Shown here: piece after piece, positions 1 through 22,780 of the stretch
How positions within the stretch are numbered: position 1 is the stretch's first letter
How the letters are laid out: every line of letters begins with the position of its first letter
Source of the DNA: a virus
Virus record (IMG/VR): IMGVR_UViG_3300020165_000005
Location: 1-22,780 of that record
Reading direction: 5' to 3' (one strand)
Length of the DNA stretch: 22,780 bases
Position numbers and translations under genes: made by a program
Notes under the pieces: generated by a model
Seen by the model: only the letters and a program-made list of their open reading frames with translations
Databases searched by the model: none
Told to the model about the DNA's origin: nothing

Positions 1-127
1 TCGCCAATGTGTCGAGCGCTGCGCAGTGCGTTTTTTATGCGCTTGTATTCAAGCTTTTGCGTCTTTGTCAGTACGTCCATGCTCAAAGGTAGCGCCAAAA
101 CCCAAAGAAAAAAATGAAATATTTCGC
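1..127. repeat. Terminal direct repeat, copy A (identical to 22654..22780)
   Basis: Base-by-base comparison: tcgccaatgtgtcgagcgctgcgcagtgcg...aaaaaaatgaaatatttcgc occurs at both ends. On the minus strand, 1..98 duplicates the first 33 codons of terS. Confidence 0.95.
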
Positions 128-2071: not shown

Positions 2072-2597
2072 TTTGGAGTTGGATTAGTGCCCTTTGCTCA
2101 CTTTTGGGCGATTTGTAGGTAAATCGGTGATCTGTTTTCTTGTACTCCAGCCACTCAGACCATGCGGCTGTAAAGGCTTCTGTCTGCCATGGAAGTACTA
2201 TCGAAAAATTTTCCCCCTTGTTTAGTAGTGTTTTAGTAATTTGTTTAGTAAGTTGATTAGTACGTGTCCGTTTGCGCCCACCCCCCTGGCTGTTTGCACC
2301 CACCCCCCTGGCCGTTTGCGCCCACCCTAAAGTCCGTTTGTACCCACCCTGTCCGTTAGCAACCACCCCCCTATTAAGGTGGCCGCTTTGGATCAGTCTG
2401 TAAATTATCTTCCGTGTGCGGTCTTCGCTAATGCCGAGCGCCTCGGCTAGTTTGGCGTTGGTCATGAAGCACTTTTTGCCATTCTCGGCGAAGCTGGCGA
2501 CCTCAGCCAACAGAATACGATCCATAGGCGCAAGGTCTAGCGTCCAAATCTCTATCGGTATCCAAATTCCGGTTCGACTACCGTTTGCGCTTTTCAT
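1866..2597 (-). CDS. Replication initiator / replisome-organiser-like HTH protein
   Basis: From the ATG at 2597 the N-terminal segment is GIWIPIEIW..LAPMDRILLAEVASFAENGKKCFMTNAKLAEALGISEDRTRKIIYRLIQSGHL. This is the winged-helix pattern common in phage and plasmid initiators (DnaD/HTH_36-like). A Gly/basic linker is encoded by the internal DNA repeats. Confidence 0.6.
   Translation of the reverse strand: MKSANGSRTGIWIPIEIWTLDLAPMDRILLAEVASFAENGKKCFMTNAKLAEALGISEDRTRKIIYRLIQSGHLNRGVVANGQGGYKRTLGWAQTARGVGANSQGGGRKRTRTNQLTKQITKTLLNKGENFSIVLPWQTEAFTAAWSEWLEYKKTDHRFTYKSPKSEQRALIQLQNEYTNESEAIEAIHRSIANGYKGLVFKQRAGGRTNASRASNLKTDVNREQLAEFARTGRIAPDSGGVL
2222..2262. repeat. AT-rich phased TTAGT(A) repeats (candidate DNA-unwinding element)
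   Basis: TTAGT starts at 2222, 2233, 2245 and 2257, giving 11-12 bp spacing. By hand count, the roughly 42-nt stretch has 9 G and 0 C on the plus strand (about 21% GC) in a genome of roughly 50% GC. Confidence 0.5.
2270..2372. repeat. Five tandem iteron-like repeats inside the initiator gene (candidate origin)
   Basis: The five units are gtttgcgcccacccccctggc (2270), gtttgcacccacccccctggc (2292), gtttgcgcccaccctaaagtcc (2314), gtttgtacccaccctgtcc (2336) and gttagcaaccacccccct (2355). Periods are 22, 22, 22 and 19 bp. Confidence 0.6.
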
Positions 2598-7138: not shown

Positions 7139-7338
7139 TTTTGCAGTTTTGCAAGCATTAACTCGATTTTGTGGACGGATGCCAGCAGTTCTTTCATGTC
7201 GCTCTTTATCTCGTTGCTGTCAATCTCCAGCTGGATCACGCGGCTTTTGAGGCGTGCCACCGTGCTGTTGAGGTTCACCCATACACCTACCAAACCAGCC
7301 ACCACCGGCGCAACCATTGCAACAAATTCCCATTCCAT
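7135..7338 (-). CDS. Membrane protein with an N-terminal TM helix and a coiled-coil tail (holin or spanin-like)
   Basis: From the ATG at 7338 (TGATG overlap with the upstream gene): MEWEFVAMVAPVVAGLVGVWV, then LKSRVIQLEIDSNEIKSDMKELLASVHKIELMLAKLQK. Confidence 0.5.
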   Translation of the reverse strand: MEWEFVAMVAPVVAGLVGVWVNLNSTVARLKSRVIQLEIDSNEIKSDMKELLASVHKIELMLAKLQK

Positions 7339-9656
7339 CACTTTTCCTTTTTCTGTATGATATACCAATTCGAATTATGGCACAAGATAGTAATGCCATC
7401 ATAAGCACGATTGAAATCGTAGGACGTTGCGCCGTCGATAGTTACGCCTGAATCCCCTGTATTCGGTCGCAGGCTTACGTATTGATTTGCCGCTATTGTG
7501 CCATCGCTATGGAACTGAATGCTGCGCCCTTCGTTATCTGCAACCAGCGGCAAATAAATAATGCTTGCACCGTTACCGCCTGTCCATGTGTTCATGATCA
7601 TGTAATCAATCGGCCGCACGTTGTACGTTGTGCCTGTTCGATTCGTCACGGTAGCGGTTCTATACTGCACGCGCGAGCCGTAACTGTCTTCACCAATCAG
7701 CAGCGTCCTATTTAGCGCCTCCGTTGCACCTGTCACGCCTAGGCTAGGATTGTGGGTTATCGGGTCAACCACGTCGATAGCGTCGCCTATGGCCGTCGTA
7801 ACGGTCGAAGCATCCCGCGCAACTAGAAACGCCTCTAGCTCAGTTTCAACGGATCGCGCTGTGAATGTAAATTGAAATAATGCAAAGTCGCCAGCTGTGT
7901 CGTCCAGCACTTGCCACATCTTTAAATCACTTCCATATACTGAGCCGCGTTGTATCGGTGTGCTGATCCGCTGGCCTGCTAATATCTCTTGCACTCCTAA
8001 ACGGTTAATGCCTACGCCTGTGCCTGTGTAGTTTAAACTTTGCCATTGGGTTACCGGTACGGCATTGAAGCCCACGTTCACGCGAATAACCCCATCAGCG
8101 TTCTGTGTTTCACCGTCACCAAACAAGCACACGCCTTGATCAATTTCGGCGCGGGCCGTGTCGCTGTTGGTAGCTGTAAAAACAACCTCATCGCCTAGCG
8201 CATTATTGCCCAGGAGGTCAGCACGCAATACCGAAATTTTAAAATCTGCTGCCGAAGTGCTTACTAGGTTACTATCGAATGCGCCATCGTCATCGATGCC
8301 GACAATGGTAACAGTTAAATCCATGCCGGTTTGGTCACTTGGTAGCGCTGGCGTATTGATCACAATGGGCATGGTAATTTCACCGCCTTCGTTCCTGTTG
8401 AATACGTAGCTAACGACTTCATAATATTCGGGCGTTGCCGTCCATTGTGGAGTACTGTAAACGTGCGAAGTGTATTCGAGTACGCCGTCATCCAACGCAC
8501 CGAGCTGAAAATCTAAAGTCGTTTCCGTAAACTGTGCATCCCGTTGCAGGTACTGCGTGCCAACCTTAACAAGGAAGCGAAGCATCACACGCGCCACAAG
8601 GTCGTCGCCGGTAGCTACGCCGTCGCCAGCATACTCATAATTGAATGTGCCAGTGATTAAAAACTCTGTGTCCTGCAAGTAGTCTATATCTGTATCCTCT
8701 AACGTGTTGCCAAATTCGGTTTCGGTATAAAGGTTATCGTATATGAGCGGATAGTTGCCATTGTATTTGCGCGTGCGTCGAACCTCTTTTAATGGTGCAA
8801 GGCCGCTATACTGGTATCCGCGTAGCCGCTCCAGTGTCGAATCAAATGCACGCGCTGCGTTAAAGCTGTCCTGTGTTATATCCGTGCCGTCTTTTTGTTT
8901 GCCTTCAACGGTTAGGGTAGTACTCGCCTGCTGCGCGCCCAAAGGCAAAAACCACCAAACGCCGTCACTCTGAAATAACCGCGCGTTAAATACCATGGTC
9001 AGGCTTTCGAGTATCTCAAAGGTTGAATAGTATTGATTGACTCCGTTGCTGTCTGGGTTGCCTAGCGACAAATTTGAAATGCCCGTGTCAATCAGCTGGT
9101 TGCTTCCCGTGTAATCTACCGCCTTAAAGTCATTGAGGTAATAAAGAAAGTTGTCCGTACTCCACAAGTGGGTCGCCCGTGTGCGGTTCAAACATATCAG
9201 CAGCAGCGTCGGCACATCTCCGCCGCCTGTCGAATCGTGCTTAATATATTGCAAATTACCAAGGTCGTCGGCTGCTGTTAGGGTGTTCTGGATCGGCTGG
9301 TAATCGTATGGCCGTGTGACCTGCTCCGGATACAATACCCCAAACCAATACGGACTATTTACCCCGTCCGGATCTTTGTACACGCTCACCGAAAAGCGTT
9401 GTTCGGGTGTCGTGGTGAGCAGGTCCATGAAGGTTGTATGTATGCTGGTTTCTTCTGTCAGCGTAAATGTCAACTCACTACCTATAACGCCCTGCATCCG
9501 GTCTTCATTGTTGCCGGTGTATGTCAATACGAAGCCATCGGCACCGAGCTTAAACGTGCCCGCCGTGCCGGTGAAATCTTCATCATGGATATTCACCCGG
9601 TAGTCCGTGCCCAGGTCATCGGTAAATTCTGCGTATAGTCGAATTGGATCAGCCAT
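7338..9656 (-). CDS. Large tail-tip / distal tail protein (772 aa); the only gene between the tape measure and lysis genes
   Basis: Assigned by position: immediately after the tape measure, with a TGATG overlap. No family recognised by eye. Confidence 0.5.
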   Translation of the reverse strand: MADPIRLYAEFTDDLGTDYRVNIHDEDFTGTAGTFKLGADGFVLTYTGNNEDRMQGVIGSELTFTLTEETSIHTTFMDLLTTTPEQRFSVSVYKDPDGVNSPYWFGVLYPEQVTRPYDYQPIQNTLTAADDLGNLQYIKHDSTGGGDVPTLLLICLNRTRATHLWSTDNFLYYLNDFKAVDYTGSNQLIDTGISNLSLGNPDSNGVNQYYSTFEILESLTMVFNARLFQSDGVWWFLPLGAQQASTTLTVEGKQKDGTDITQDSFNAARAFDSTLERLRGYQYSGLAPLKEVRRTRKYNGNYPLIYDNLYTETEFGNTLEDTDIDYLQDTEFLITGTFNYEYAGDGVATGDDLVARVMLRFLVKVGTQYLQRDAQFTETTLDFQLGALDDGVLEYTSHVYSTPQWTATPEYYEVVSYVFNRNEGGEITMPIVINTPALPSDQTGMDLTVTIVGIDDDGAFDSNLVSTSAADFKISVLRADLLGNNALGDEVVFTATNSDTARAEIDQGVCLFGDGETQNADGVIRVNVGFNAVPVTQWQSLNYTGTGVGINRLGVQEILAGQRISTPIQRGSVYGSDLKMWQVLDDTAGDFALFQFTFTARSVETELEAFLVARDASTVTTAIGDAIDVVDPITHNPSLGVTGATEALNRTLLIGEDSYGSRVQYRTATVTNRTGTTYNVRPIDYMIMNTWTGGNGASIIYLPLVADNEGRSIQFHSDGTIAANQYVSLRPNTGDSGVTIDGATSYDFNRAYDGITILCHNSNWYIIQKKEK

Positions 9657-11626
9657 CAGAATCCCCTTACTCGGTTTCGGTCGATTGCATTGCGCTCACT
9701 TGTTAGCAGTATATCACGGCCTGAAATCTTGCCGGTCACCTGTACGCTTTGCCCGCCTATCATGCTTTGCAATTTATCCAGCGGCGCAATTACTTCAGGG
9801 TTATGCTGTGCGCCTGAATACTCACCCACCTGCGCAATGACCGGCCCGCTGACAATGCCACCGCTGGCCATCTGTGGAATACCAAAGCCGCCGCCTATAA
9901 ACTTACCGAGTCCGCCCTTTACTAAACTACTGCCGGGCATAAGCACGGATAGAATGGCGAATTGAGCAATGAGCGAAGCCAGTTGGATCAACATCTGCTT
10001 AATTATATCGCGCATGACTTCCTCAAATGTTGCCGTTCCTGCTATGATGCTTTTAAATGTGCTATCAATGAAGTTGGCCATGCTTCCGGCAATGCTGTTA
10101 ATTTGGTTCTTTACCAGGTTCGTCCGTTCAATGACCTTATCAATATCCTCTTCGTCAAGATCTGCATCGTCTATAAATTCAATGTCTTCGAATTCTAGAT
10201 CAGCCCGAACGGTCACGGTTTCCGTTTGTGTTGGTGTTACCGTAGCACCTGCACCGCCGCCGCCGCCGCTAATGGCTGACGGTATTAAATTAGTCAAGCC
10301 GCCCAATGTACTTAACGCGTTGGCTACGCTTTCCTTTGTAACCAACTCCAGCGGCTCACGCTCAAGCTCTGTGTTGACTGCCGTTGTAAAGTCCTCGGCT
10401 GCCTTTGCGCCAAACGTAGCCATACGATCCGCCGCGTTGGTGAATGCGTTGCTGATGGCGTCGCCTATGTTTGATAGGTCACCGCTAAGAACCGCGCTAA
10501 TGATTGCGCCAAGGTCTTGAAATGCGCCAATGACCGCATCCACAGCGAACAGGAAGAAATCAAACACCACTTGCACCGTGCCCTTGATCCCGCCAATGAT
10601 GCCACGCAAAAGGCTGGACTCATTGTAAAGCGTTATAAAGTAGTTAATGACGTCGGTAATGTATGGCGCTATCTCATCGGCAAAGGTTACGATCGCAATA
10701 CCCAAACCGACGACGGCAGCAATGACCAAACCAATAGGCGAAAGCAATGCCATAAAGCCCTGTATTAGTGACGGCAGTATGATAAGCAACGGGCCAAGTG
10801 CGGCCGCAATACCTGCACCGATTACCATGAATCTCTTAACCTCTGGGCTGAGGTTTTGGAATGTCGCCAGCATATTCTTAAGGCCGTCAATGACCGGCGG
10901 CAGAAACTCCATTATAATCTTACCAAATTCCTCTTGCAAATCACCAAATGAATTTGCCAGTTGCTTTAGTCCACCCGTGCCCGCCTTCGCTGCTGCCTCT
11001 GCGGATCCTCCGTATTGCTTTTCTAGCTCGTCAAGTATAACGGTTTGAGCCTCGGCAAGCCTACCGGATTCGGTCAAGCTTTTAATTACTTGCTTTTGGT
11101 CTTCGCTGAACTGAATACCCGACCGGCTCAACGCGCTCAGGTTTGCGATTGGATCATTCAACGCTTTACCCAATTGAATGGATGCGCTTTTTAGATCGCC
11201 ATCTAAACGCGTGGCAAGATCCAAAGCAACGGACTGCGTGCGGGCAAACTGATCGCCGGCAATGTTGGTAAACGTCAGCAGCTGCGAGGTTGCATCCTTT
11301 AGTATTTCTTCATCCCCGAATATCGTTTTCGTTTGCAGGTCGCTGGCCATCTGCTGCAACTGCTTAGAAGTATATCCAACGGTTGAACCGGTGGACTTCA
11401 AACCCGCCTCGACCTGTGCAATAGCTTTGGCTTGCTGGTCGAATGCTTTCACCGCTGTAAAGCCAAGCGCCGCAATCGGTGCGGTCAGCCCCATGGTCAT
11501 AGACTTGCCGAGCTTCTTGGTGTTCATACCAAAGCGCTGCATCTTTTTCATAGATGAGCCAAGCGCCTTATCAAATTGCTTTGTTTGCGCTCCTATCGTT
11601 ACGATTAAATCGTTCAGCTTTGCCAT
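9656..11626 (-). CDS. Tail tape measure protein
   Basis: 656 aa. Position after the G/GT chaperone genes. N-terminal TP901-type core style (MTMGLTAPIAALGF...QLLTFTNIAGDQF). Central hydrophobic Gly/Ala/Ile-rich block and a GGGGGAG tract. Confidence 0.85.
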   Translation of the reverse strand: MAKLNDLIVTIGAQTKQFDKALGSSMKKMQRFGMNTKKLGKSMTMGLTAPIAALGFTAVKAFDQQAKAIAQVEAGLKSTGSTVGYTSKQLQQMASDLQTKTIFGDEEILKDATSQLLTFTNIAGDQFARTQSVALDLATRLDGDLKSASIQLGKALNDPIANLSALSRSGIQFSEDQKQVIKSLTESGRLAEAQTVILDELEKQYGGSAEAAAKAGTGGLKQLANSFGDLQEEFGKIIMEFLPPVIDGLKNMLATFQNLSPEVKRFMVIGAGIAAALGPLLIILPSLIQGFMALLSPIGLVIAAVVGLGIAIVTFADEIAPYITDVINYFITLYNESSLLRGIIGGIKGTVQVVFDFFLFAVDAVIGAFQDLGAIISAVLSGDLSNIGDAISNAFTNAADRMATFGAKAAEDFTTAVNTELEREPLELVTKESVANALSTLGGLTNLIPSAISGGGGGAGATVTPTQTETVTVRADLEFEDIEFIDDADLDEEDIDKVIERTNLVKNQINSIAGSMANFIDSTFKSIIAGTATFEEVMRDIIKQMLIQLASLIAQFAILSVLMPGSSLVKGGLGKFIGGGFGIPQMASGGIVSGPVIAQVGEYSGAQHNPEVIAPLDKLQSMIGGQSVQVTGKISGRDILLTSERNAIDRNRVRGF

Positions 11627-12236
11627 TGGTCTCTTTCTAGTATTCGCTGCCTAAGTTCTTCCTTGTTAAGCTTACCGGCCTTGGCCTTTGGTTTCTCCCA
11701 TGGAAATTGCATTAGGTCCTTTGGCTGCAATTTACGCCCTTTTTTTAGGTGAGGCTGCATGATCATAGAACCGAGCCACCGCGTGCGCTCCCACTCCATC
11801 CGCTCACGTATCTCTTCGCTCTCACGGTTGGCGTCAAGTGCTAGGCTGACCTCGCCGAATGTCATTGACCAAAACGCAGAAGGGGATAGGCGCAATATGC
11901 CCATCCCCATCCGTATTATATCCGGCCAGCCTATCGGCTTGTCTGTGCCGTCTATGCTTTTTTTTCGCTGCTATATTCGCCGAGTGCGTCAAAGCATTGG
12001 GTGACGTGTTCCAGCGTGATGTGATCTTCGAACGTCATCAAATCCATATCGAATTCCTGACCTTCAAAGCTGCATCCACATTCAACGCCGACGAAGCAAA
12101 GAAAGGCGCAAGCGTCTGCGCTCAGCTTTGACGGATCGGATAGGCTGAACACATTCACTTTTGTTTTACGCTCAAACTTCTTCAGCGCCTTCATGCTGTA
12201 CCGCACTGGGTACTCCGTGCCGTTTACTTCAATCAT
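11614..12236 (-). CDS. Tail assembly chaperone GT fusion product via -1 programmed frameshift (about 207 aa)
   Basis: The -1 frame is open from the A8 run to the 11614..11910 ORF. That ORF carries GILRLSPSAFWSMTFGE, the T-segment-like LSP.EFW..T..E motif seen in GTA and siphovirus chaperones. The hand-translated junction is ...SSEKK|SIDGTDKPIGWPDIIRMGMGILRL... Confidence 0.7.
11952..12236 (-). CDS. Tail assembly chaperone (G-like, zero-frame product, 94 aa)
   Basis: Small acidic ORF directly after the major tail protein (ATGA overlap). It ends ...GAA AAA AAA GCA TAG. Confidence 0.7.
   Translation of the reverse strand: MIEVNGTEYPVRYSMKALKKFERKTKVNVFSLSDPSKLSADACAFLCFVGVECGCSFEGQEFDMDLMTFEDHITLEHVTQCFDALGEYSSEKKA
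11958..11965 (-). promoter_or_regulatory. Slippery run A AAA AAA (T8 on the plus strand) for the -1 frameshift
   Basis: Zero-frame codons are GAA AAA AAA GCA TAG. This gives the X XXY YYZ heptamer A AAA AAA, 2 codons before the G stop. Confidence 0.7.
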
Positions 12237-12646
12237 TCAGCTGTCTGTGTAATTGCGCCAGTCAATTCGAAAGTAGCTGAATAGGTTGCTGTATCTTCTG
12301 TGCCACCTGACTGCTCAAGGCTAGTGATAAAACCGTTGGCGCTATAATTGAAATCTTCTCCAACGACTGGAGTAGCTTTTGCAAACTTTAAAGCCAAAGC
12401 CGTGCGATTGTTCAAGGCTGTAAACAGATCGGAAACGTCTTTGTTTGCACTGTCGTTGTAATCAATCAAACCGCTGACGCTGATTGATCCAGACTTTACA
12501 CCACCGAGCAGCTCACGGAATCCCGCGCTGTCCTTTGTAGTGATGTCAATCGTTTCCATGTTTAAGGAAATCGAGCAATCTGTGGCCGCTGCGATCAGCG
12601 TGCTATCAATGTAAACTCCTAGTTCTGTACCGTTAAAAATGGCCAT
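12233..12646 (-). CDS. Major tail protein (TP901-1/phi13-like)
   Basis: 137 aa. The pattern ...CSISLNMETIDITTKDSAGFRELLGGVKSGSISVSGL...YSANGFITSLEQSGGTEDTATYSATFELTGA fits that family's s.s...e..d.T.kds.gw.e...g.ks.s.s..g and C-terminal tf.g.G motifs. It lies just upstream of the chaperone genes. Confidence 0.8.
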   Translation of the reverse strand: MAIFNGTELGVYIDSTLIAAATDCSISLNMETIDITTKDSAGFRELLGGVKSGSISVSGLIDYNDSANKDVSDLFTALNNRTALALKFAKATPVVGEDFNYSANGFITSLEQSGGTEDTATYSATFELTGAITQTAE

Positions 12647-12647
12647 T

Positions 12648-12815
12648 TTATTCTTCTGTTAATTCGTTATTATCTGAGTCCGTTTTTTTCTTTGGGGCGT
12701 CGAGGTATCCCTTTGCTTTAAGTTCTGCGGCAAAGTCAGAAGTGACTGACGGCGTTGCGCCTTTCTTCCAGTTGTTACCGCGTAGCTTGCACGCCTTTTG
12801 AATTGTGACCTTCAT
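12648..12815 (-). CDS. Small hypothetical protein (55 aa); below the ORF-track cutoff
   Basis: Hand translation: MKVTIQKACKLRGNNWKKGATPSVTSDFAAELKAKGYLDAPKKKTDSDNNELTEE. It fills what would otherwise be a 178-nt gap. Its TAA ends 1 nt before the major tail ATG. Confidence 0.45.
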   Translation of the reverse strand: MKVTIQKACKLRGNNWKKGATPSVTSDFAAELKAKGYLDAPKKKTDSDNNELTEE

Positions 12816-12824
12816 GGGTGCAAG

Positions 12825-13229
12825 TTAATCAATTTCAGGTTGATCTGGAAACCATCCGTTTTCATCCATGTATTCCTGTGTTCGGATCGTTGTATCGCTC
12901 GGTACGATATGCCCAAACGGGAACTTTTGATTCACTTGAACGTAACTGCTGAGGGAATAACGCTCATCATTCGAAAGCTCAGGGAAGCACGCAACAAGGC
13001 GTTCTAGCGTTGCCGCTGGGTGTACGTTTATAAGATACTCGGTGTCCACTTGCAAAGCGTTCTGTACTCCGTCAGGGTGTACCACGATACCAAACACGGC
13101 AGAATCTACTTCCCACTCTGCTTGTATGAGAACGGGGCGGCTGATGTTGTACAGCTCGCGGGTTATTTGCTTTGCCCGTGCTTCGCTTGTCTGCGTGTCC
13201 GTTGGTAGTACTATGATATATCCGTTCAT
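12825..13229 (-). CDS. Hypothetical protein (134 aa) downstream of the fibre gene
   Basis: ORF with a TGATG overlap to the upstream 952-aa gene. No family recognised. A fibre-assembly or neck accessory role is pure inference from position. Confidence 0.6.
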   Translation of the reverse strand: MNGYIIVLPTDTQTSEARAKQITRELYNISRPVLIQAEWEVDSAVFGIVVHPDGVQNALQVDTEYLINVHPAATLERLVACFPELSNDERYSLSSYVQVNQKFPFGHIVPSDTTIRTQEYMDENGWFPDQPEID

Positions 13230-16087
13230 CAGTAGATTGAATAGAAGGTGTTAATGTTGTCTTCGATGTTTGTTCGGTTGCTAGATTGGTCGGAGGGATA
13301 CGCTATCAGCTCTCCAAAAAAGCCGTTAAAGTTAGAGTTATTCAAGCCGCCAATACGAAACGAGGTTATTCCATTAGTTCCTGGATTTCCCGTCAAACGG
13401 GAAACGCTATTCAGGTATATTTCTGAGTTTGCACCATCGAAAAGTGAAAAATCTAATCTTCTTGTATTTGCTCCCCCACCACCTGACACAAAAGATGAGC
13501 CAGCGTACATTCTTGTTTGTGACCCATTATCTTGTATGGCTGCATATTGTGACTGCCCAAGGCTGTAAAACCATCCCGCTTGAGCAGGGGAATTTGTTGT
13601 ATCCACAAAACTTATTGCCGTTACTGGCTGGCTGGCTGCAGTCATTGTTCCCGTTAATAATTGCTGACCACCTGAAAAACTCAGAACTGGTTTATTTTGA
13701 GTGTCCGTCACCACGCCCGTAGTGCCGTCGTAAATCTTAGGCATATTCGCGGTAGTCGTTTGCGCCGCGTCATTCGAGCCTGCTTGGTCGTACCACTTCG
13801 ATACAAACCCGTCATTGCTTCCGCAGTGCGCAGCCAGTGCAACCGTATCCAACTCACCGAATACATTGAAGCCGATATCCGCGTAGCTGCTCCCGTTGTA
13901 AACCTCTACCGCGTCACCTGTGTAAGCCGTGCGCATCAGTCGCAAAGAATAGCAAGCAGCTGCTCCCGTGTACGTGTCGAGCAGTGGCGTGTTTTGGGTG
14001 AAGTAGTCGCCGATGTTTTCTTCAATGGATGTTTGGTCTGTGCCTGATTTGTCGGAGTCGTAAATAATTAACTCTTGCACAGTACCATTCAACTCGTTGT
14101 CTATCGCGTCAGGTCTTGCGCCAATAACGTATCTATCAATCGTTTCGGACAATGTATTGTTAACAGACGCGCCCGAACTACCGTTTAGGTAATTGGTTAA
14201 AGTTGAGCCGCTGTGTATGGAATTGAATAAAAATGGAGTCCCATAAGTAAAAGTGAGCGGGCTTACAAAGCTTCCCACATAGCTAGAAATTACATTATTT
14301 AAATTATCTCTTACCATCGGAATATAAGAAGGTACGTCCGTATTTGCCCCTAACATTTGCGTGAATAATCTGTCATAACGCGAACCTATAACTATGCTCG
14401 CAACGGAAAAGCTACTTTGGGTGGTTAGGGTTTTTGAGCTAAATAAAGCGTCTAAACGGTCATTAAAAAACTCCAACGCCAACTTCCCATTCTCCTTCAC
14501 CAACGCGCCCCCCGTGTAAATCGTCGGCTCTGCTCCCGTGCTCGGTGCTGTCGCTGTGTTCCCGTTTCCTGATTGGTCAAGCCATTGATAGACCGTGCAG
14601 GTCGTACCCGTGCAGAAGGTATTTATAGCGCTCTCGTCGATGTTGCCTGAACCGTCAAAGCCGATTGTTGTGGTCGTGCTATCCGATGCCCTGCGAATCA
14701 CCATGCAGTCCGTTACGTTGCCGTTGAGCCTTCGCGTTGAATATGCTGCCTCCGCTCCGCTGCCATACGTCTCGTTTAGCAAGCCCGTGAACGCGGGTGC
14801 GGCTGTTACCTCCTCCCACGTTTGGAGTAACGTAAACGGCGGCACGCCATACGTTGCGCCATCTTCGAAGCCGTCAAACGTGGCAACCGTATCCGCGTAC
14901 GCTGTATTGTCCGCAAAGGTGTGGATCAAAGTATAGTCACCAATAACGTCCGCGTCTGTAATGAATCCCGTCTTGTGGTAAATCTTCCGCACGATTACTT
15001 TGCCCGCCGCTGGCGTGTCGCTTTCGGCGTCGATGAAAATGCCGTCGCCCTCCGACTTTACCGAGTAAGCACGTTCGGCAAATATCGTAGGCATATCTTT
15101 TCCCGTTTCAACCTCATCTTCAAAACGGTTGGTATAACTCACCTGCGATTTGAATGCGTTCGCTGTGGCGTCGTATATAAGCGCCTGATTTGCTGACGGC
15201 GTGCCGACTATTGTAACGTCGCTCAGGTCGTTTAAATCCGTAGGTACGGCGCTTGTATCTGCCTTCGCATTAAGCGCTGTCTGCGTGGCTGTACTTACTG
15301 GCTTATCCGCGTCGCTGGTATTGTCGACGTTGCTAAAGTCTGCGCTGTTTGCCTTGGCGCTTAGTGCCGTTTGCGTGGCCGTGCTTACAGGTTTGTCCGC
15401 GTCACTGGTGTTGTCCACATTGCCCAACCCCACTTCGCTTTTTACTAGGCTGTCATTCGTCCATTCGCTGCCGTCGTACTTTAGAAGCTCGCCCGTTTCC
15501 GGCCCGCCCTGTCCAAATTGCACGTCGGTCAATTGCCCCAACTGAGTCACGCCGCCCGCGTCGTCTGCCGGTTGCCATTCCTGTACAGCTGCATCATAAG
15601 CTAATACCTGCCCGTCCGTTACGCCGGTTACATCTACGTCATACAAATCGCCAATCTTTGCACCCGTTACCGGTGTGCCCTGCGCTATCTCAAAATCGTC
15701 GCGCTTGATCCGAAAGGTAAACGTTAGCACTTGAGCAAAGCGGCGCGGCGCGTCAATGGTGTCTATGTCCACGTCATTGAATTGTACGCTCTCCACGTTC
15801 ACGCCGTTGTAGGTACCGCTTACACGATCCAATGCACCGCGCACTTTGTCGCCGAGATCAGCAGCCAGTGCATACGTATCGGCATAGCAAAGGAATTCGA
15901 ACCGTACTTCGTCCAGCTTACTCGGCCCGTCGTGCGTGTCCTCAGGTGCAACGCTCTGCAACTGGTAAACAATAAACGGCGTGGCGGTTTCCTGCTCGGC
16001 TACCTCTGGAAATACCTTGACGCCAACAATGTCGGTGACGTCTGTGTTTTGCGTCAGTATTACGTACGCGGCTATTCCTGCATTCAT
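13229..16087 (-). CDS. Fusion protein: tail-terminator/completion-like N-domain (DUF3168/gp17 style) plus long fibre with tail-fibre repeats and two AbfB-like plus LamG-like carbohydrate-binding modules
   Basis: Uninterrupted 952 codons.
- aa 1-128: ...TPFIVYQL...EVRFEFLCYA...LTFTFRIKR, in the gene position of a tail terminator.
- aa 222-276: two copies of NVDNTSDADKPVSTATQTAL(S/N)AKA.
- aa ~436-700 and ~701-952: each contains (A/C)YS(T/L)R.L ... IGF ... W(L/Y)DQ(S/A)G(N/S)(G/N), followed by a jelly-roll-like segment ending ELI.Y.SD......IE(E/D)NI. Confidence 0.65.
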   Translation of the reverse strand: MNAGIAAYVILTQNTDVTDIVGVKVFPEVAEQETATPFIVYQLQSVAPEDTHDGPSKLDEVRFEFLCYADTYALAADLGDKVRGALDRVSGTYNGVNVESVQFNDVDIDTIDAPRRFAQVLTFTFRIKRDDFEIAQGTPVTGAKIGDLYDVDVTGVTDGQVLAYDAAVQEWQPADDAGGVTQLGQLTDVQFGQGGPETGELLKYDGSEWTNDSLVKSEVGLGNVDNTSDADKPVSTATQTALSAKANSADFSNVDNTSDADKPVSTATQTALNAKADTSAVPTDLNDLSDVTIVGTPSANQALIYDATANAFKSQVSYTNRFEDEVETGKDMPTIFAERAYSVKSEGDGIFIDAESDTPAAGKVIVRKIYHKTGFITDADVIGDYTLIHTFADNTAYADTVATFDGFEDGATYGVPPFTLLQTWEEVTAAPAFTGLLNETYGSGAEAAYSTRRLNGNVTDCMVIRRASDSTTTTIGFDGSGNIDESAINTFCTGTTCTVYQWLDQSGNGNTATAPSTGAEPTIYTGGALVKENGKLALEFFNDRLDALFSSKTLTTQSSFSVASIVIGSRYDRLFTQMLGANTDVPSYIPMVRDNLNNVISSYVGSFVSPLTFTYGTPFLFNSIHSGSTLTNYLNGSSGASVNNTLSETIDRYVIGARPDAIDNELNGTVQELIIYDSDKSGTDQTSIEENIGDYFTQNTPLLDTYTGAAACYSLRLMRTAYTGDAVEVYNGSSYADIGFNVFGELDTVALAAHCGSNDGFVSKWYDQAGSNDAAQTTTANMPKIYDGTTGVVTDTQNKPVLSFSGGQQLLTGTMTAASQPVTAISFVDTTNSPAQAGWFYSLGQSQYAAIQDNGSQTRMYAGSSFVSGGGGANTRRLDFSLFDGANSEIYLNSVSRLTGNPGTNGITSFRIGGLNNSNFNGFFGELIAYPSDQSSNRTNIEDNINTFYSIY
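15260..15424 (-). repeat. Tandem 90-bp (30-codon) duplication encoding the phage tail-fibre repeat
   Basis: By hand alignment, 15260-15331 and 15350-15421 are about 78% identical in DNA. The encoded 24-mers differ at only 1 residue. Confidence 0.85.
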
Positions 16088-16608
16088 TTCTTTTTTCCTT
16101 TTGCTTTCGCTGCTTTGCGAATTTGAAACTCGTATTTCTTACGCATCTTCGTCAATGCCTCGCCCCGCTTGTTTGCAATCGATCGAGCAAATACGCCTTT
16201 GTTTCTGTTGTTGCCTTTTATGAACTGGTCATCACCTTCGACGATGTTAGCAAACCATGCATCAGCGTCTTTCGGTGCTTTCCTTCCTACGCGCGGCCCC
16301 ACCCAAAAGGTACTGTGCTGTTTGTCAATTTGCCAAACCTTAATGGATCGGCGCAGCGTACCCGCCTTAATATCAAAGCCACCTTTACCACCTCGACGGA
16401 TTCGAATAGTTTCACGCGCGTCGACAATGTTGTTCAGCATCTCATCTTTGTAAATCTTGCCGACTGCGCGATGGATACGTTTCTGCACATTCTGATCGCT
16501 GACCTGTTTACGTAGTTGCTCAAATTGTTTCATCAGCGGCTTAATGTCTGCGCCGATTCCTTCAAAGCCAACCTTACCTCCTTTCTGCTCAAGTGCTCCC
16601 TGTGCCAT
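16084..16608 (-). CDS. HK97 gp10-like neck / tail-completion protein
   Basis: 174 aa. The segment ...AGTLRRSIKVWQ...FWVGPRV...AWFANIVEGDDQF fits the gp10-family pattern (tG.Lr.Si ... vG ... ya..vE.G). ATGA overlap with the downstream gene. Confidence 0.55.
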   Translation of the reverse strand: MAQGALEQKGGKVGFEGIGADIKPLMKQFEQLRKQVSDQNVQKRIHRAVGKIYKDEMLNNIVDARETIRIRRGGKGGFDIKAGTLRRSIKVWQIDKQHSTFWVGPRVGRKAPKDADAWFANIVEGDDQFIKGNNRNKGVFARSIANKRGEALTKMRKKYEFQIRKAAKAKGKKK

Positions 16609-16939
16609 GTGTTCCCGTTATTTCGCAAAGTAGAATAAGCTGGTCATTGCGCCCAACTTCCTCAATGCCTTGTATGGTGTACGTGTTGCTGTTGTAGATA
16701 ACGCGGTCCGCTGGATTTATTGCCCGCGTGTCCGTGCTGCTGCGGATCTTAAACCGTAGCCGCTGCACCGGCATATCCTGATCGCCGGTAAGCTTTTCGG
16801 CCATACCTTCGCCGGCCTTCATCAGTTCAGCCCATACGGTTACCAACGTAGACCATGACGGCACGCGCTCACCGTAGGCGTTGGTGCTGGTAGTGTAGTT
16901 CTGCACCTCGATTCGTCTGTCGCTCTGTCCTATCCTCAT
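16589..16939 (-). CDS. Head-tail adaptor / head-closure protein (SPP1 gp16-type)
   Basis: From the ATG at 16939 (ATGA overlap with the upstream gene): MRIGQSDRRIEVQNYTTSTNAYGERVPSWSTLVTVWAEL...RLRFKIRSS...DRVIYNSNTYTIQGIEEVGRNDQLILLCE. This is the classic head-tail joining protein pattern. Confidence 0.75.
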   Translation of the reverse strand: MRIGQSDRRIEVQNYTTSTNAYGERVPSWSTLVTVWAELMKAGEGMAEKLTGDQDMPVQRLRFKIRSSTDTRAINPADRVIYNSNTYTIQGIEEVGRNDQLILLCEITGTHGTGST

Positions 16940-17502
16940 ACTGAAGTAATAACGCGGTAAGGGTTTAAGATAGCGTAAAGGCCAAGCGGTAAGGTAGTGG
17001 CAATTGTACCGGCTACAACTGGCTGCCGCTGCTCGTACAGGTGCGCCACCATCCAACGGATCGCGGTAATGAAAGGCTTTGGTATATCGGCCTCTGCGTA
17101 TCCTACATTCATGTTTACCTGCACCGCGTTAAATGTGTCGTCATAAAGATCCGGCACGCTGTCGAATGTGATCCGCGCGGCTTTAGTCTTTATATCGGCC
17201 CACCACTTAGCTGTCGCCAGCGTCTGCGTGGCGTTCGCCGTGTCCTTGTACTGCACTGAAGCAATGGAGTTGACCGGACCGATAGGCAGGCGGACGTTGT
17301 AAAAAAAATCAATGTATCCCACGGCGGTCACGTCACCGAGCCGCGTATTGCAATAATCCTCAACCCACGCAATGGCTGCATCTCGGTAAGCTTCTATAAG
17401 TGTATCCTCGTCTGTGTGATCCACTCTCAAATGTTCTTTAAGCTGTGCCACGGTTATAATGCTGTCGAGGTCGGGCGTGCCTGTTATTTCTACGGTCATC
17501 AT
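16936..17502 (-). CDS. gp6-like head-tail connector protein
   Basis: From the ATG at 17502: MMTVEITG...ITVAQLKEHLRVDHTDEDTLIEAYRDAAIAWVEDYCNTRL, the QLK.HLRVD..D.LI..YI.AA signature. The longer ORF-track start would include the upstream terminator hairpin. Confidence 0.75.
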   Translation of the reverse strand: MMTVEITGTPDLDSIITVAQLKEHLRVDHTDEDTLIEAYRDAAIAWVEDYCNTRLGDVTAVGYIDFFYNVRLPIGPVNSIASVQYKDTANATQTLATAKWWADIKTKAARITFDSVPDLYDDTFNAVQVNMNVGYAEADIPKPFITAIRWMVAHLYEQRQPVVAGTIATTLPLGLYAILNPYRVITSV

Positions 17503-17519
17503 GTCGCTAAAATACGGAC

Positions 17520-17546
17520 AAAAAAAAGAGGGGCCGAAGCCCCTCC
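17520..17546 (-). terminator. Rho-independent terminator just after the capsid gene
   Basis: Minus-strand RNA GAGGGGC-UUCG-GCCCCUC (perfect 7-bp stem, UUCG loop), followed by a run of nine U. It begins 26 nt after the capsid gene stop codon. Confidence 0.8.
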
Positions 17547-17571
17547 TTTCCAAACAAATAACCCAACCAAA

Positions 17572-19479
17572 TTAGGCGCTCAACTTCGTAGCTGTTGCCA
17601 ACGCTTGCGGCTGTCGCAAATCGAAATCGAAGAATCGGTTCACGTGCAAAGCAATCTGTGCAGTACCTGCATCGCTGTAAGGGTCAACTAGCAAATCAAT
17701 GCCACCGAAGTAAGCCAAGATTCCGCCCTGTGCGAAGTTTCCGAAAATCATATTTCCGCCAACTGTTGAACCGCCTACGGCTGCATCTAGTACAGAGTTC
17801 ACCAAGTATGGAGTAGCTACCCCACGGTACATATTGAACTGGCCGTTTTCCCATAGTGCGTTGACGCTTGCAACCTGTGCCAAAGCCTTGGAAAGCGCGT
17901 ACGCTTTCGGACTCATAACGTATGCAGCGCCTGCAAGATTTCCACCGTCTTCAAGCACAGCGGTTTCCATGTCGTTAACAATTGCAGCATCTAAAGCGGC
18001 GTCAGCTGTTATAACCTGATTCACAGCAGTCGATGCCATGATAGCGGCAAAGGCTGTTGTATCTACGTAAGCGTTCATAGCCGCGGCCAACTCGTTAGCA
18101 ATCAAAGCATCTACCTCTGCACCGCCCTGCAATACAAGTTGCTTGCTGTACTTAGTGTTAGCTGCAACACGCTGCGGCGACAAAGTCAGGCTATCCATTT
18201 CCATGCCTGAAGCTGAATCTCCCTCTACTTCTGTCGCTCCTGTACCTGCGGCCTTCGCGCTTACACGTGGAAACTGCAAGTTACCTGTGGCATTTCGAAT
18301 TACTGTTGTTCCGAGTCCTTCCAATACGGTTGGCGCTCGCAGTGCTTCAATCGCAGCAGGTACAACAGTTGGAACAAATCCTGAACCGTCGCCGCTTCCT
18401 GCTTGGAAGTCGTCAGGACCTCCAGCACGCAAAGCAATTGAAGGAATTGCAATCTGTCCAGCCATCTGAAGTCCTTGGCTTCGTGCTTCCTTGCTTGCCT
18501 CACTTGCCCACTCTGCTTCTGCACCTTCCAAGTTGCGACCGTTTGCAACGGCAGCGACTGCACGGCTTAGGGAAAAAGAACCGTTCACGCGCTCAACTTC
18601 GCGCTGCTCGGATGCGCCAGCTGTACCGCTCTGCGCCATTCGTGCAACCATATCCTGCTCACGTGTTTTGTGCTTAATCTTAACGTCCAAGTCCTGCATC
18701 ATGCCGTCAAGCTTGTCGCATCGTTCTTGTTCTGCTTCTGTCATAACGCGGCCTTCGCTGTCCGCCTTTTGGCCAATGGCTACGAATTCTTCGTAGTTCG
18801 CATTGCGCTGGCCTTTCAAATCGTTTAAAGTCATCTTAGTAATGTTTTGCGTAAAGTTACGCGGTTCTGTTTTTATCGTTGCAGGTTCTGCGCGTTCTTC
18901 CGTTTCCGGTTCTGCTGCTACCTGTTCTTCCTTTAATTCCTCCACTTCCTGCGCCGCCGCTGCCATGTTACGCGCGTATACTGAAGCCGTCGGGCTGGCT
19001 GGGTATGTTACTGCCGAGGTATCTAATAACCTGCCCACCTTGGTAATGGTTCGCGTGCTGCGGTCTTCGCTCCATTCGTCCGCCTCGATTGTAAAGGCAA
19101 AAGAACTTTGTGATATATCGCCGCGCTTAATCAGCTTGTAAAGATCGCGCCCGTCCTGCGTGTCGGCAAGTGCCGCGCGATACTTCAAACCTTGATCGTC
19201 TACGCTCAGTTCCAGCGTGCCGTTCGTAGTTCGTGCCAACGGTGCGCCGGTATGGTTAAGCAAAAATCTAACGTCGTCTTCCATGACGCCATCGAATGCG
19301 CCACGTGCTACGGTTTCTTTGAAGTAACCAAGATCATACTCTACTTCAAAATTACTTGCATAGCCTTCGACTACCAAAGCATCATCGCCAGCGGCCCGCA
19401 CTTCTGCCGTTCGCAGTTCTACGTTCTCACCGTACTGGCTGCGCAGCTCATCGGTGCGCTTGTCATCTTTATTCTCCAT
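17572..19479 (-). CDS. In-frame fusion of HK97-type prohead protease (S78) with scaffold-like coiled coil and HK97-fold major capsid protein
   Basis: 635 aa.
- aa ~35-165: VVEGYASNFEV...RFLLNHTG...GDISQSSFAF (protease His and Ser motifs).
- aa 170-215: acidic linker.
- From M216 (18834): MTLNDLKGQRNANYEEF...TEAEQERCDKLDGMMQDL, a typical delta-domain start of HK97-family capsid proteins, followed by a ~330-aa capsid body. Confidence 0.8.
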   Translation of the reverse strand: MENKDDKRTDELRSQYGENVELRTAEVRAAGDDALVVEGYASNFEVEYDLGYFKETVARGAFDGVMEDDVRFLLNHTGAPLARTTNGTLELSVDDQGLKYRAALADTQDGRDLYKLIKRGDISQSSFAFTIEADEWSEDRSTRTITKVGRLLDTSAVTYPASPTASVYARNMAAAAQEVEELKEEQVAAEPETEERAEPATIKTEPRNFTQNITKMTLNDLKGQRNANYEEFVAIGQKADSEGRVMTEAEQERCDKLDGMMQDLDVKIKHKTREQDMVARMAQSGTAGASEQREVERVNGSFSLSRAVAAVANGRNLEGAEAEWASEASKEARSQGLQMAGQIAIPSIALRAGGPDDFQAGSGDGSGFVPTVVPAAIEALRAPTVLEGLGTTVIRNATGNLQFPRVSAKAAGTGATEVEGDSASGMEMDSLTLSPQRVAANTKYSKQLVLQGGAEVDALIANELAAAMNAYVDTTAFAAIMASTAVNQVITADAALDAAIVNDMETAVLEDGGNLAGAAYVMSPKAYALSKALAQVASVNALWENGQFNMYRGVATPYLVNSVLDAAVGGSTVGGNMIFGNFAQGGILAYFGGIDLLVDPYSDAGTAQIALHVNRFFDFDLRQPQALATATKLSA

Positions 19480-22378: not shown

Positions 22379-22751
22379 CTTTAAAAGTTAGGAGCTGCTC
22401 AAGTTCGTCGTCCATTTCAACCTCGACTTCGATGCGCTTCCTTGCCGCTGGTGTCATACCTAACTCCTTCAGCACTACCAAATATTTGGATCGTGACTCA
22501 ACTAACATTTGATGCTCAGGCCGGTGCTTCGTCATCGTGCCGCCGTCACGGTTTTTGAATTCGTAGGTGTAACCTTTTTCGTCAATCAGGCTTTGCAGTT
22601 CTCGAACCTCAACCGCTAGGCAGGCCGCCATTGTTAAAAGGTCTTCATCTAATTCGCCAATGTGTCGAGCGCTGCGCAGTGCGTTTTTTATGCGCTTGTA
22701 TTCAAGCTTTTGCGTCTTTGTCAGTACGTCCATGCTCAAAGGTAGCGCCAA
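22371..22751 (-). CDS. terS: Terminase small subunit (P27 family); start is either TTG at 22751 or ATG at 22733
   Basis: 126 aa. The segment ...LDEDLLTMAACLAVEVRELQSLIDEKGYTYEF...HRPEHQMLVESRSKYLVVLKELGMTPAARKRI matches the ELGLTPaaR tail of that family. The 5' end lies inside the terminal repeat. Confidence 0.8.
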   Translation of the reverse strand: MALPLSMDVLTKTQKLEYKRIKNALRSARHIGELDEDLLTMAACLAVEVRELQSLIDEKGYTYEFKNRDGGTMTKHRPEHQMLVESRSKYLVVLKELGMTPAARKRIEVEVEMDDELEQLLTFKDA

Positions 22752-22780
22752 AACCCAAAGAAAAAAATGAAATATTTCGC
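22654..22780. repeat. Terminal direct repeat, copy B (identical to 1..127)
   Basis: See copy A. The length of 127 nt equals a commonly used maximum assembler k-mer. Confidence 0.95.

Follow-up and report, generated by a model that had tools for sequence, protein, structure and literature searches.

One gene of this marine phage probably encodes the phage's only tail terminator, which would double as the anchor of a fibre at the neck. The window, that is, the whole stretch of 22,780 nucleotides analysed here, represents a circular genome, complete at 22,653 bp, and the gene joins in one 952-aa chain an N-terminal terminator domain, a linker, a fibre shaft, a conserved alpha/beta domain and two lectin-type modules (Table 1).

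The initial annotation had described an uninterrupted 952-codon ORF at 13229-16087, following gp6-like, head-closure and gp10-like genes and preceding the tube gene. The ORF exists and starts with ATG, but it lies on the minus strand and reads from 16087 to 13229, the plus-strand translation being stop-rich; likewise, the three upstream genes are where they had been placed, but two small ORFs of 134 and 55 aa intervene between the fusion gene and the tube gene. The fusion gene overlaps its neighbours at both ends, at its start the stop of the 174-aa gene upstream and at its stop the start of the 134-aa gene downstream, and the neck-to-tube gene order is kept in relatives and in cultured phages with stand-alone terminators. 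No family match was obtained for the 174-aa ORF in Pfam, PHROG and the terminator PHROGs, or for the 134-aa ORF in Pfam, PHROG and NCBIfam. A single 772-aa ORF separates the tape-measure gene from the lysis genes, bearing out the earlier statement that the tail tip is encoded by one gene. The same genome also encodes a capsid protein to which an S78 prohead protease is fused. Matches in genome collections were confined to MAG contigs.

Table 1. Coordinates in the window of the fusion gene, its predicted domains and the neighbouring genes
Feature	Position	Strand	Basis or remark
Terminator-fibre fusion gene, 952 aa plus stop	13229..16087	(-)	ATG-started ORF, uninterrupted
Tail terminator (TrP) domain, SPP1 gp17 / RcGTA Rcc01690 / lambda gpU type, aa 1-128	15704..16087	(-)	PF11367, PHROGs, fold
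Linker and recombination junction, aa 129-145	15653..15703	(-)	pLDDT below 50; identity break between relatives
Fibre shaft with three beta-hairpin motifs and repeats, aa 146-320	15128..15652	(-)	PHROGs, model
Two 30-aa repeats, aa 223-272	15272..15421	(-)	each bears NVDNTSDADKPVSTATQTAL
Conserved alpha/beta domain between shaft and lectin modules, aa 321-432	14792..15127	(-)	pLDDT 70-85
Lectin module 1, ConA/LamG-type beta-sandwich with terminal helix, aa 433-700	13988..14791	(-)	PF09206, Foldseek
Hypervariable cassette HV1, inside module 1, aa 536-665	14093..14482	(-)	identity among relatives
Lectin module 2, paralogue of module 1, aa 701-952	13232..13987	(-)	identity, Foldseek
Hypervariable cassette HV2, inside module 2, aa 801-922	13322..13687	(-)	identity among relatives
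134-aa companion gene, candidate fibre chaperone or accessory subunit	12825..13229	(-)	travels with the fibre
55-aa ORF	12648-12815
Tail tube protein	12233..12646	(-)	PF06199 at 1e-15, phrog_1407
Upstream neck genes, predicted terminator-ring partners	16084..17553	(-)	PF05135, PF05521, phrog_442, phrog_25
Ad1/gp6-like adaptor	16936-17553	(-)	PF05135
Hc1 head closure	16589-17056	(-)	PF05521
174-aa gene, Ne1/gp10 position	16084-16608	(-)	position
772-aa protein, only tail-tip gene after the tape-measure gene	7338..9656	(-)	second host-interaction candidate

The proposal that the N-terminus is a tail terminator is borne out by family, PHROG and fold evidence, which all agree. PF11367 matches aa 10-127 over profile positions 6-123 of 124 (E 6e-9, 36.5 bits against a cut-off of 24.5), and aa 1-128 match five terminator PHROGs (347, 123, 176, 78 and 1232), with phrog_347 at E 2e-16. 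The AF2 model of these residues (pLDDT 91.6, pTM 0.85) retrieved 40 PDB matches at E<=0.001 with Foldseek, almost all of them tail terminators or tailocin caps, the best being RcGTA 6TBA (6tba_4A, TM 0.74/0.75), followed by the terminators of phiXa, Mu, T5, Bxb1 and lambda; the fold check that might have spoken against the assignment therefore returned the terminator fold. A profile compared with PDB sequences also matched the RcGTA terminator Rcc01690 over its full length (E 0.005). The cultured relatives of this domain are stand-alone genes of 127-129 aa immediately upstream of the tube gene, and the fusion protein aligns with stand-alone terminators from residue 1. Here the domain makes up only the N-terminal 13% of a chain that, at 952 aa, is far larger than the small single-domain terminators of about 120-160 aa. 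No other ORF of the genome matches a terminator family in Pfam, PHROG or NCBIfam searches. Extension of this kind is not confined to the present gene: 77 of the 150 closest cluster representatives of the terminator family have C-terminal extensions of at least 120 aa, and in 6 of those 77 the terminator is directly followed by one lectin module. The C-terminus of this terminator family thus tolerates cargo.

A long fusion ORF in a metagenomic record could arise if an assembly or sequencing indel joined two genes, a ~130-aa stand-alone terminator gene and an ordinary fibre gene, and one relative, L002, indeed has a 149-aa PF11367 gene overlapping a separate 809-aa fibre gene. This split, however, is due to a single inserted base, mapping to the linker, in a contig of 5x coverage, as seen against the intact and 93%-identical L013, and L002 is the sole split relative. 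Everywhere else the fusion is kept. The terminator domain is fused in frame at 70 of the 70 IMG/VR loci that carry it, which answers the earlier call to look for split genes in relatives, and among the 120 best protein homologues about 88 are fused as well (ENA, JGI, NCBI and Logan assemblies). These homologues fall into three terminator clades of 41-100% identity, and even the diverged clades keep the single frame. An identical protein (P0001) was recorded independently in another public assembly, and more than 80 further full-length homologues occur in metagenomes. Hundreds of related ocean viral contigs have the terminator-fibre design. No slippery site is conserved at the fusion, which is a plain ORF. 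The comparison of relatives argues that the fusion is no artefact; the artefact reading is effectively refuted and scarcely credible.

Beyond the linker, the chain has the features of a phage fibre. The shaft matches tail-fibre and minor-tail PHROGs (e.g. 35419 and 13892), and its pLDDT stays below 50 over aa 131-300 in the monomer model, as expected of an oligomeric shaft. Three motifs of the L..DV...G(Q/E).L.YD....W type had been noted in this part; they are present (aa ~148-171, 186-209 and 288-312), each on a predicted beta-hairpin, but are loose, the first alone being matched by a strict regular expression. The two tail-fibre repeats were recovered as described, with exact copies of NVDNTSDADKPVSTATQTAL at aa 223-242 and 253-272; their copy number ranges from 0 to 5 in relatives, and they match tail-fibre proteins of Arthrobacter and Tsukamurella. 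The following alpha/beta domain is conserved (majority-residue fraction about 0.75) and gave no family match in profile searches. No helix longer than ~15 residues is predicted in aa 130-435, where the model is of low confidence.

The C-terminal half of the fibre consists of two tandem modules which, as anticipated, are homologous to one another over their full length (28% identity, E 3e-8); the model of module 2 has pLDDT 75-94. The separate AbfB-like and LamG-like segments that had been distinguished in each module are apparently two halves of one ConA-like sandwich, and the AbfB/CBM42 label itself was mistaken. What matches in aa 444-519 is PF09206, the GH54 catalytic beta-sandwich (34 bits against a cut-off of 25, profile positions 11-89 of 315). 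For the CBM42 beta-trefoil, no PF05270 match was found at E<=5, and none of the strong fold matches correspond to it, all of them being beta-sandwiches. GH54 structures are the best Foldseek matches of the modules (E 1e-11), and laminin LG4-5, neurexin LNS, BoNT Hc, galectin-8 and a trans-sialidase lectin domain are matched with probability 1.0. PF13385 is recorded for several orthologues; P0215 matched it at E 1e-4, below Pfam's cut-off. On the models, the modules are predicted to have a ConA-like lectin fold, a beta-sandwich of the jelly-roll type.

In each module, a conserved frame surrounds a hypervariable cassette of ~125 aa. HV1 retains ~17% identity even between relatives whose terminator domains are 97-100% identical, and it gave no tblastn match across 7 related genomes; it is 99.2% identical to the cassette of two type-B fibres, P0074 and P0078, which belong to a different phage lineage. 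The predicted lectin fold and the hypervariable cassettes support a glycan-binding reading of the modules. The above-threshold GH54 match and the GH54 structures at the top of the fold search would fit a different reading, in which the modules would be GH54-like glycosidases or depolymerases instead of lectins and the neck fibre would degrade capsule or exopolysaccharide. We consider this unlikely, as the profile match is limited to positions 11-89 and does not span a full-length catalytic domain, and the remaining fold matches (laminin G, neurexin, BoNT Hc and galectin) are non-catalytic lectin domains. Moreover, the region judged to hold the GH54 catalytic acids lies in the hypervariable cassettes, with ~17% identity among orthologues, which argues against a conserved catalytic constellation there.

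The terminator domain and the fibre vary separately. In L013 and L002, identity to the window is low for the terminator domain (41%) and equally for Hc1 (38-40%), the tube protein (37-40%) and the 174-aa gene (30%), whereas it is high for the portal (96%), the 134-aa gene (92-97%) and aa 146-432 of the fibre (86-92%). The terminator domain thus co-varies with Hc1, the 174-aa gene and the tube protein, all of which changed together. The 134-aa gene, which stays this similar where neck and tube genes were replaced, also follows the fibre elsewhere: the pair occurs on two other N-terminal anchors (type B and type C), and whichever of the three anchors is present, a 67-83% identical homologue of the 134-aa gene adjoins the fibre gene. 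Because the fibre occurs on other anchors, its body is independent of the terminator domain. The fibre and the 134-aa gene make up a separate cassette that is exchanged between phage lineages.

These observations bear on two further readings. Tube, terminator and connector proteins have related folds, and such domains are thus redeployable; the N-terminus could be a repurposed adaptor that docks the fibre away from the tube end, leaving termination of the tail to the 174-aa or the 134-aa ORF, neither of which has a family assignment. However, the domain occupies the canonical terminator slot, aligns with stand-alone terminators from residue 1 and co-varies with Hc1 and the tube protein, while the 174-aa ORF takes the Ne1 position and the 134-aa ORF accompanies the fibre also where the genome has another anchor, all of which make this reading improbable. 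Alternatively, the product could be a processed polyprotein, with the fibre cleaved off after translation to assemble elsewhere, for example at the tail tip, and the fusion serving only co-expression or stoichiometry. The linker, disordered in the model, the S78 protease of the genome and the finding of the same fibre with other N-terminal anchors would fit such processing. Prohead proteases, however, work inside the capsid and not on tail proteins, profile searches found no conserved cleavage motif or autoproteolytic domain, and a released fibre would lack an attachment domain; type-B and type-C fibres again have an N-terminal domain at this place, consistent with an anchor role. Processing is accordingly improbable in our judgement.

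A fibre-bearing terminator remains our preferred reading, and it would work as follows. Six N-terminal domains would form a ring, as in other siphophages, which would stop tube polymerisation, cap the last tube hexamer and dock onto the head-closure ring; the co-variation of the domain with Hc1 and the tube protein supports this placement indirectly. Six linkers of ~17 aa would leave the ring outward, so that each virion would carry six fibre chains and 12 lectin domains at the head-tail junction, arranged as six single fibres or as two trimers. The terminator hexamer most likely holds these chains and lectin domains out at the neck, where they would act as glycan adhesins. The hypervariable cassettes would bind variable host surface polysaccharides, giving a reversible primary adsorption and contributing to host range, and new specificities could be acquired by recombination at the conserved cassette flanks; irreversible binding and DNA delivery would fall to the 772-aa protein at the tip of the ~100-nm tail. 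The initial annotation had left it between a neck fibre that replaces tip recognition and one that supplements it. Addition is more likely than replacement, because the tip protein varies strongly among close relatives (34-94% identity). Its variability equals that of the fibre, so host range need not be determined mainly by the latter. When the T5 terminator was tagged at its C-terminus, polymerisation became aberrant, and the authors of that study suggested that the tag may have folded back inside the tube (PMC11784142); an exposed C-terminus is therefore not to be assumed for every terminator family.

Compared with the stand-alone terminators SPP1 gp17 (PF11367), RcGTA Rcc01690 (6TBA), lambda gpU (3FZ2) and T5 p142 (8BCP), the protein is alike in family, fold, gene position and ~128-aa domain, but those proteins end after ~120-160 aa whereas this one has a further ~820 aa that form a fibre; of the 50 best structural matches in BFVD, 49 are 109-195 aa long. 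Enlarged terminators are known from contractile systems, namely T4 gp15 and PVC16, which have extra domains for sheath interaction or duplicated terminator folds (PMC11784142). They share with our protein a terminator fold with added C-terminal domains, but the additions are neither fibres nor lectins.

Fibres at the head-tail junction have been described in lactococcal 936 and P335 phages (TP901-1 NPS), where they end in carbohydrate-binding modules and serve as ancillary adhesins (PMC6669499). There the fibre, NPS, is encoded as a protein of its own: its N-terminal beta-sandwich is BppU-like and has been proposed to build an 18-mer collar, a trimeric coiled coil follows, and a BppA-type CBM comes last; the C-terminal binding domains are variable and grouped into classes (PMC6669499). 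The fibre predicted here would likewise sit at the junction of a siphophage, and its C-terminal modules are hypervariable and of a lectin-type fold. The two differ in that our anchor is the terminator itself, with no BppU-like N-terminal collar domain, that no long coiled coil is predicted in the low-confidence shaft model, and that the modules are of ConA/LamG type, with a fold unlike BppA. CBM decorations of tail ring proteins are represented by the 'evolved' Dit and by the tube-protein extension TpeX of 936 phages (PMC6669499), which likewise append to or insert into a hexameric tail ring protein carbohydrate-binding domains for multivalent display; there, however, the carrier is the distal tail protein or the tube instead of the terminator, and TpeX is made by programmed frameshifting whereas our fusion is a plain ORF.

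With GH54 alpha-L-arabinofuranosidase (1WD3, 6SXT) and the laminin-G/ConA-like superfamily, the modules share the beta-sandwich and the PF09206 match to its first strands; they differ from GH54 in matching only the N-terminal quarter of the profile, in having no CBM42 and in a hypervariable sandwich centre. Homologous GH54-like/LamG modules and NVDNTSD-type repeats are found in Synechococcus phage S-CBS4 and in Gordonia and Arthrobacter phages, where the annotation of the proteins is minor tail, tail fibre or virion structural protein, and in no GenBank phage record among those searched are such modules joined to a terminator domain. We found no description of a terminator-fibre fusion in the literature. 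The present design would join the neck adhesin fibres and decorated ring proteins already known.

The design implies that adhesins can be attached to the head-tail junction in a manner that we did not find described. A broader reading is possible, and we advance it tentatively: in an ocean-wide clade of ~23-kb siphophages, host specificity might be largely set at the neck, the terminator ring acting as a general socket for a mobile cassette of fibre and companion gene, attached by in-frame fusion, and this cassette, whose lectin inserts would be interchangeable, might have fused independently to one or more other small stand-alone virion proteins, among them the 152-aa type B protein of an unrelated ~26-kb lineage. 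If this were true, in-frame capture by small virion proteins would be a recurrent route by which adhesins spread between phages.

The two ends of the window (1-127 and 22654-22780) are identical over 127 bases, and the window is therefore a complete, circularly assembled genome of 22,653 bp. This size is small for a siphophage, and relatives are often contigs of 22-24 kb. Every gene lies on the minus strand, including the 952-aa ORF, which opens with an ATG at 16087 and runs for 952 codons to a stop; the initial annotation had its coordinates and codon count exactly right but overlooked its strand. On the coding strand, an HNH endonuclease, the small and large terminases and the portal are followed by a fused S78 protease-capsid protein, the Ad1 adaptor (PF05135), the Hc1 head-closure protein (PF05521), a 174-aa ORF in the Ne1 slot (the neck position between head-closure and terminator genes), the 952-aa ORF, a 134-aa and a 55-aa ORF, the tube protein (PF06199), two chaperone ORFs, the tape measure, one tip protein, an M15 peptidase and, finally, the replication genes. 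The three genes before the fusion had been placed correctly, while the 134-aa and 55-aa ORFs preceding the tube gene had been missed; the rest of that description of ORF and gene order was accurate. No internal promoter or terminator signals above chance were found around the 952-aa gene. The single protease-capsid ORF is kept in relatives (630-634 aa). The mechanical ORFs of Hc1 and Ad1 overlap by 121 bases, and since both exceed the genes called in relatives (109-116 aa for Hc1 and 187-190 aa for Ad1), translation of each probably begins at an internal start. Within the HTH_36/DnaD-like gene, about four overlapping direct-repeat units (consensus TGGCYGTTTGCRCCCACCCCCC) recur every 22 nt and resemble iterons, suggesting a probable replication origin inside the initiator gene.

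Coordinates of features in the window, of domains in the 952-aa ORF and of loci in related contigs
Feature	Position	Strand	Remarks
HTH_36/DnaD-like gene	1866-2648	minus	
Iteron-like repeats	2265-2349		
772-aa ORF (tip protein)	7338-9656	minus	only gene between tape-measure and lysis genes
Tape measure	9656-11626	minus	656 aa
134-aa companion ORF	12825-13229	minus	
952-aa ORF	13229-16087	minus	terminator-fibre fusion
Linker	aa 129-145		disordered in model
Shaft	aa 146-320		low-confidence in model
Conserved alpha/beta domain	aa 321-432		
Hc1 mechanical ORF	16589-17056	minus	155 aa, TTG start
Ad1 mechanical ORF	16936-17553	minus	205 aa, TTG start
Peptidase_S78 prohead protease + HK97-type major capsid protein	17572-19479	minus	one 635-aa ORF
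Type-B locus, contig L003	10001-13771		
Type-B locus, contig L001	180-3977		
Type-B locus, contig L095	8001-8459		
Match in MAG contig L009	7475-9879		Pirellulaceae-labelled, same synteny

PF11367 matches aa 10-127 of the fusion over nearly its whole length with a score exceeding the gathering threshold (E 6e-9), and the domain alone matched five PHROG families annotated as tail terminator; NCBIfam returned no match for the fusion or for the 134-aa, 174-aa and 772-aa proteins. AlphaFold2, supplied with an alignment containing 48 homologues, nearly all of them stand-alone proteins of about 93-151 aa, produced a model of the domain with a pLDDT of 91.6 and a pTM of 0.85. Foldseek comparison of this domain with the PDB gave 40 matches at E<=0.001, almost all of them tail terminators or tailocin caps, including those of RcGTA (6TBA, TM 0.74/0.75), phiXa gp8, Mu, monocin, T5 p142, Bxb1, pyocin R2 and lambda gpU. 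The sequence profile also matched the RcGTA terminator along its full length (E 0.005), a result for which the profile was needed, as a single-sequence PDB search with aa 1-135 gave no relevant match. The nearest cultured relatives, Bacteroides phage Bacuni_F1 and Methanoculleus virus L4768, differ in encoding stand-alone terminators of 129 aa and 127 aa, respectively, directly upstream of the tube gene. Among the remaining ORFs of the complete genome there is no other terminator-family match, and the 134-aa ORF was ruled out as a hidden terminator because genomes with other anchors carry it beside the fibre too. Sequence, fold and position all identify the N-terminal domain as a genuine tail terminator, and the proposal that aa 1-128 are terminator-like withstood the fold search.

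Besides one identical copy, the protein database contains over 80 full-length homologues of the 952-aa protein. The terminator domain stands at the start of about 88 of the 120 best homologues, which form three clades sharing 92-100%, 74-85% and 41-47% identity with the window. In IMG/VR, relatives are encoded in 378 stretches; among the best 80 of these loci the domain is present in 70, and in all 70 it continues in frame into the fibre (55 complete ORFs of 661-1201 aa and 15 that run off the contig). The only split case, L002, is a contig of 5x coverage that carries one extra base in the linker relative to the intact, 93%-identical L013. This conserved in-frame fusion, together with the one-base difference in the sole exception, excludes an assembly artefact joining two genes, and the fused rather than split arrangement claimed initially is therefore upheld. 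The fusion is genuine and ancient, its reality being nearly certain, and it is obligatory; post-translational release of the fibre from the terminator is a less likely reading. Both alternative frames, read from the window sequence, stop just past the domain boundary, but the T-run at the junction is not conserved in L002 and L013 and no X XXY YYZ slippery motif occurs; a programmed frameshift or a truncated terminator product was therefore rejected. In the L009 contig the match spans ~2.4 kb with a longest ORF of 638 aa; this distant relative may have either a frameshift or a shorter fibre.

Comparison of the window with three close relatives (L010, L011 and L012) and two other related genomes (L013 and L002) divides the protein into two evolutionary units that meet at the linker.

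Identity to the window in five related genomes
Protein or region	L010-L012	L013, L002
Terminases	95-100%	mostly not comparable
Portal	98-100%	96% (L013)
Capsid protein	87-93%	about 87%
Hc1	85-95%	38-40%
174-aa ORF	88-94%	30%
Terminator domain, aa 1-128	95-100%	41%
Fibre, aa 146-432	86-91%	86-92%
134-aa ORF	92-99%	92-97%
Tube protein	80-99%	37-40%
Tail chaperones	95-100%	26-47%

L013 and L002 have had the terminator domain replaced along with its expected physical partners, with the breakpoint at the domain junction. Such joint replacement is what a working terminator would be expected to show, and repurposing of a terminator-like domain as an anchor is the less likely explanation. The same comparison shows the fibre and the 134-aa gene to be a separate cassette. 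Genomes that share 87-100% identity in their head genes have unusually divergent tape measures (55-78% identity, lengths of 656-678 aa).

The partition of the extension was taken from the full-length structure model. The shaft, in which three beta-hairpin motifs occur along with two 20-aa repeat cores that are exact copies, matches tail-fibre and minor-tail PHROGs, and its low model confidence is in line with a probably oligomeric state of this chain. The two paralogous C-terminal modules, of about 255 aa each and 28% mutual identity, found their best fold match in the GH54 catalytic beta-sandwich (E 1e-11), followed by the trans-sialidase lectin domain, laminin G, neurexin LNS, botulinum Hc and galectin. 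This fold is that of ConA-like lectins. We consider enzymatic modules less likely than lectin ones. The modules contain no CBM42, and their Pfam match, PF09206, covers profile positions 11-89 only; the 'AbfB/CBM42 + LamG' pairing proposed for each module therefore gives way to what is apparently one sandwich per module. Homologues carry one to four modules. In a 57-sequence alignment, the majority-residue fraction falls to about 0.26 at aa 536-665 (first module) and aa 801-922 (second module), with flanks of at least 0.8, and even L010, whose portal and terminator domain are 100% identical to those of the window, has no detectable similarity in either cassette. The first cassette of the window is 99.2% identical to one in homologues P0074 and P0078, whose fibres carry a 'type B' anchor in another phage lineage of about 26 kb. 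The modules are lectin-fold units with exchangeable hypervariable inserts, in a pattern typical of receptor-binding regions diversified by recombination.

This unrelated 157-aa type-B domain starts about 20 of the 120 homologues, and a short third type starts four. The 134-aa companion adjoins the fibre in all three anchor types, and its homologues beside differently anchored fibres share 67-83% identity; with no match in Pfam or PHROGs either, it is a candidate for a new fibre chaperone or accessory family. In related phages of about 26 kb that lack fibre and companion, type B is a stand-alone 152-aa gene in the same slot, downstream of the genes for the large terminase and a 220-aa protein, and sister genomes have it joined in frame to this fibre cassette. 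Judging from the stand-alone gene in these fibre-less relatives, in-frame fibre capture seems to have occurred at least twice. The type-B anchor has no Pfam or PHROG assignment and no PDB sequence match, hhalign against the terminator profile gave a probability below 1%, and no method based on sequence connects it to the terminator. By eye only, the order of its likely secondary-structure elements (helix, strands, helix, long hairpin) looks terminator-like.

We surveyed the wider family through the 150 representatives closest to aa 1-135 among clusters at 50% identity, an exhaustive search that was informative where a word-indexed one returned mostly fragments. C-terminal extensions of at least 120 aa occur in 77, 48 are stand-alone, and in 19 a longer protein ends with the domain. 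Some of the extended proteins, of about 380-407 aa, join the terminator to one lectin module with no shaft, and many others carry unrelated extensions. Of the top 50 structural matches among viral proteins in BFVD, 49 fall between 109 and 195 aa in length and the remaining one has 385 aa. The fusion architecture is therefore common in metagenomes and nearly absent from curated or cultured phage data. Megablast against GenBank phages found no near relatives, and tblastn only isolated modules or distant stand-alone terminators; a host search of genome-collection contigs returned only two MAG contigs, of Pirellulaceae and Pontimonas, which are probably binned phage DNA. RcGTA head spikes, which bind capsule, are a precedent for a head-proximal adhesin. 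Another is the lactococcal neck passage structure (PMC6669499). What is new is the terminator as carrier, neck adhesin fibres and CBM-decorated ring proteins being already known. No description of a terminator-fibre fusion was found in the literature searched, whose full-text coverage was incomplete; a study of the T5 terminator notes that some terminators carry extra domains, such as the sheath-interacting ones of myophages, and does not mention fibres on them (PMC11784142).

Display of the fibre at the neck is probable. As hexameric rings, terminators cap the tube and bind the head-closure ring; from this role six chains per virion would leave the neck and display 12 lectin domains. At the standard rule of about 1.5 A of tail length per tape-measure residue, the 656-aa tape measure would give a tail of roughly 100 nm, so that a neck fibre probably cannot reach the tail tip. 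Its role would most plausibly be reversible primary adsorption to surface polysaccharide, with the variable 772-aa tip protein completing infection. This protein, encoded by the single tail-tip gene that the initial annotation had recognized, shows 34-94% identity among otherwise near-identical relatives and has no Pfam or PDB-sequence match and a weak PHROG match; it may combine the distal tail and the tip in one chain and is a candidate second host-range factor.

Receptor-binding proteins are sought at the tail tip, and tail terminators are regarded as small caps for assembly that do not vary; in this genome the most variable adhesin-like protein is part of that very cap, in a design that recurs in hundreds of marine viral contigs. 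If neck display is true, a major determinant would escape host-range tools that confine their search to the genes following the tape measure, and the terminator C-terminus would be a natural cargo-tolerant display site useful for phage engineering. The 99%-identical cassette found on different anchors would then be a concrete, testable case of adhesin exchange between unrelated marine phages, which presumably have a common host. Neck display would also pose the mechanical question of how an adhesin roughly 100 nm from the tip aids infection, possibly through capture on capsule or marine polysaccharide particles, or through reorientation of the virion.
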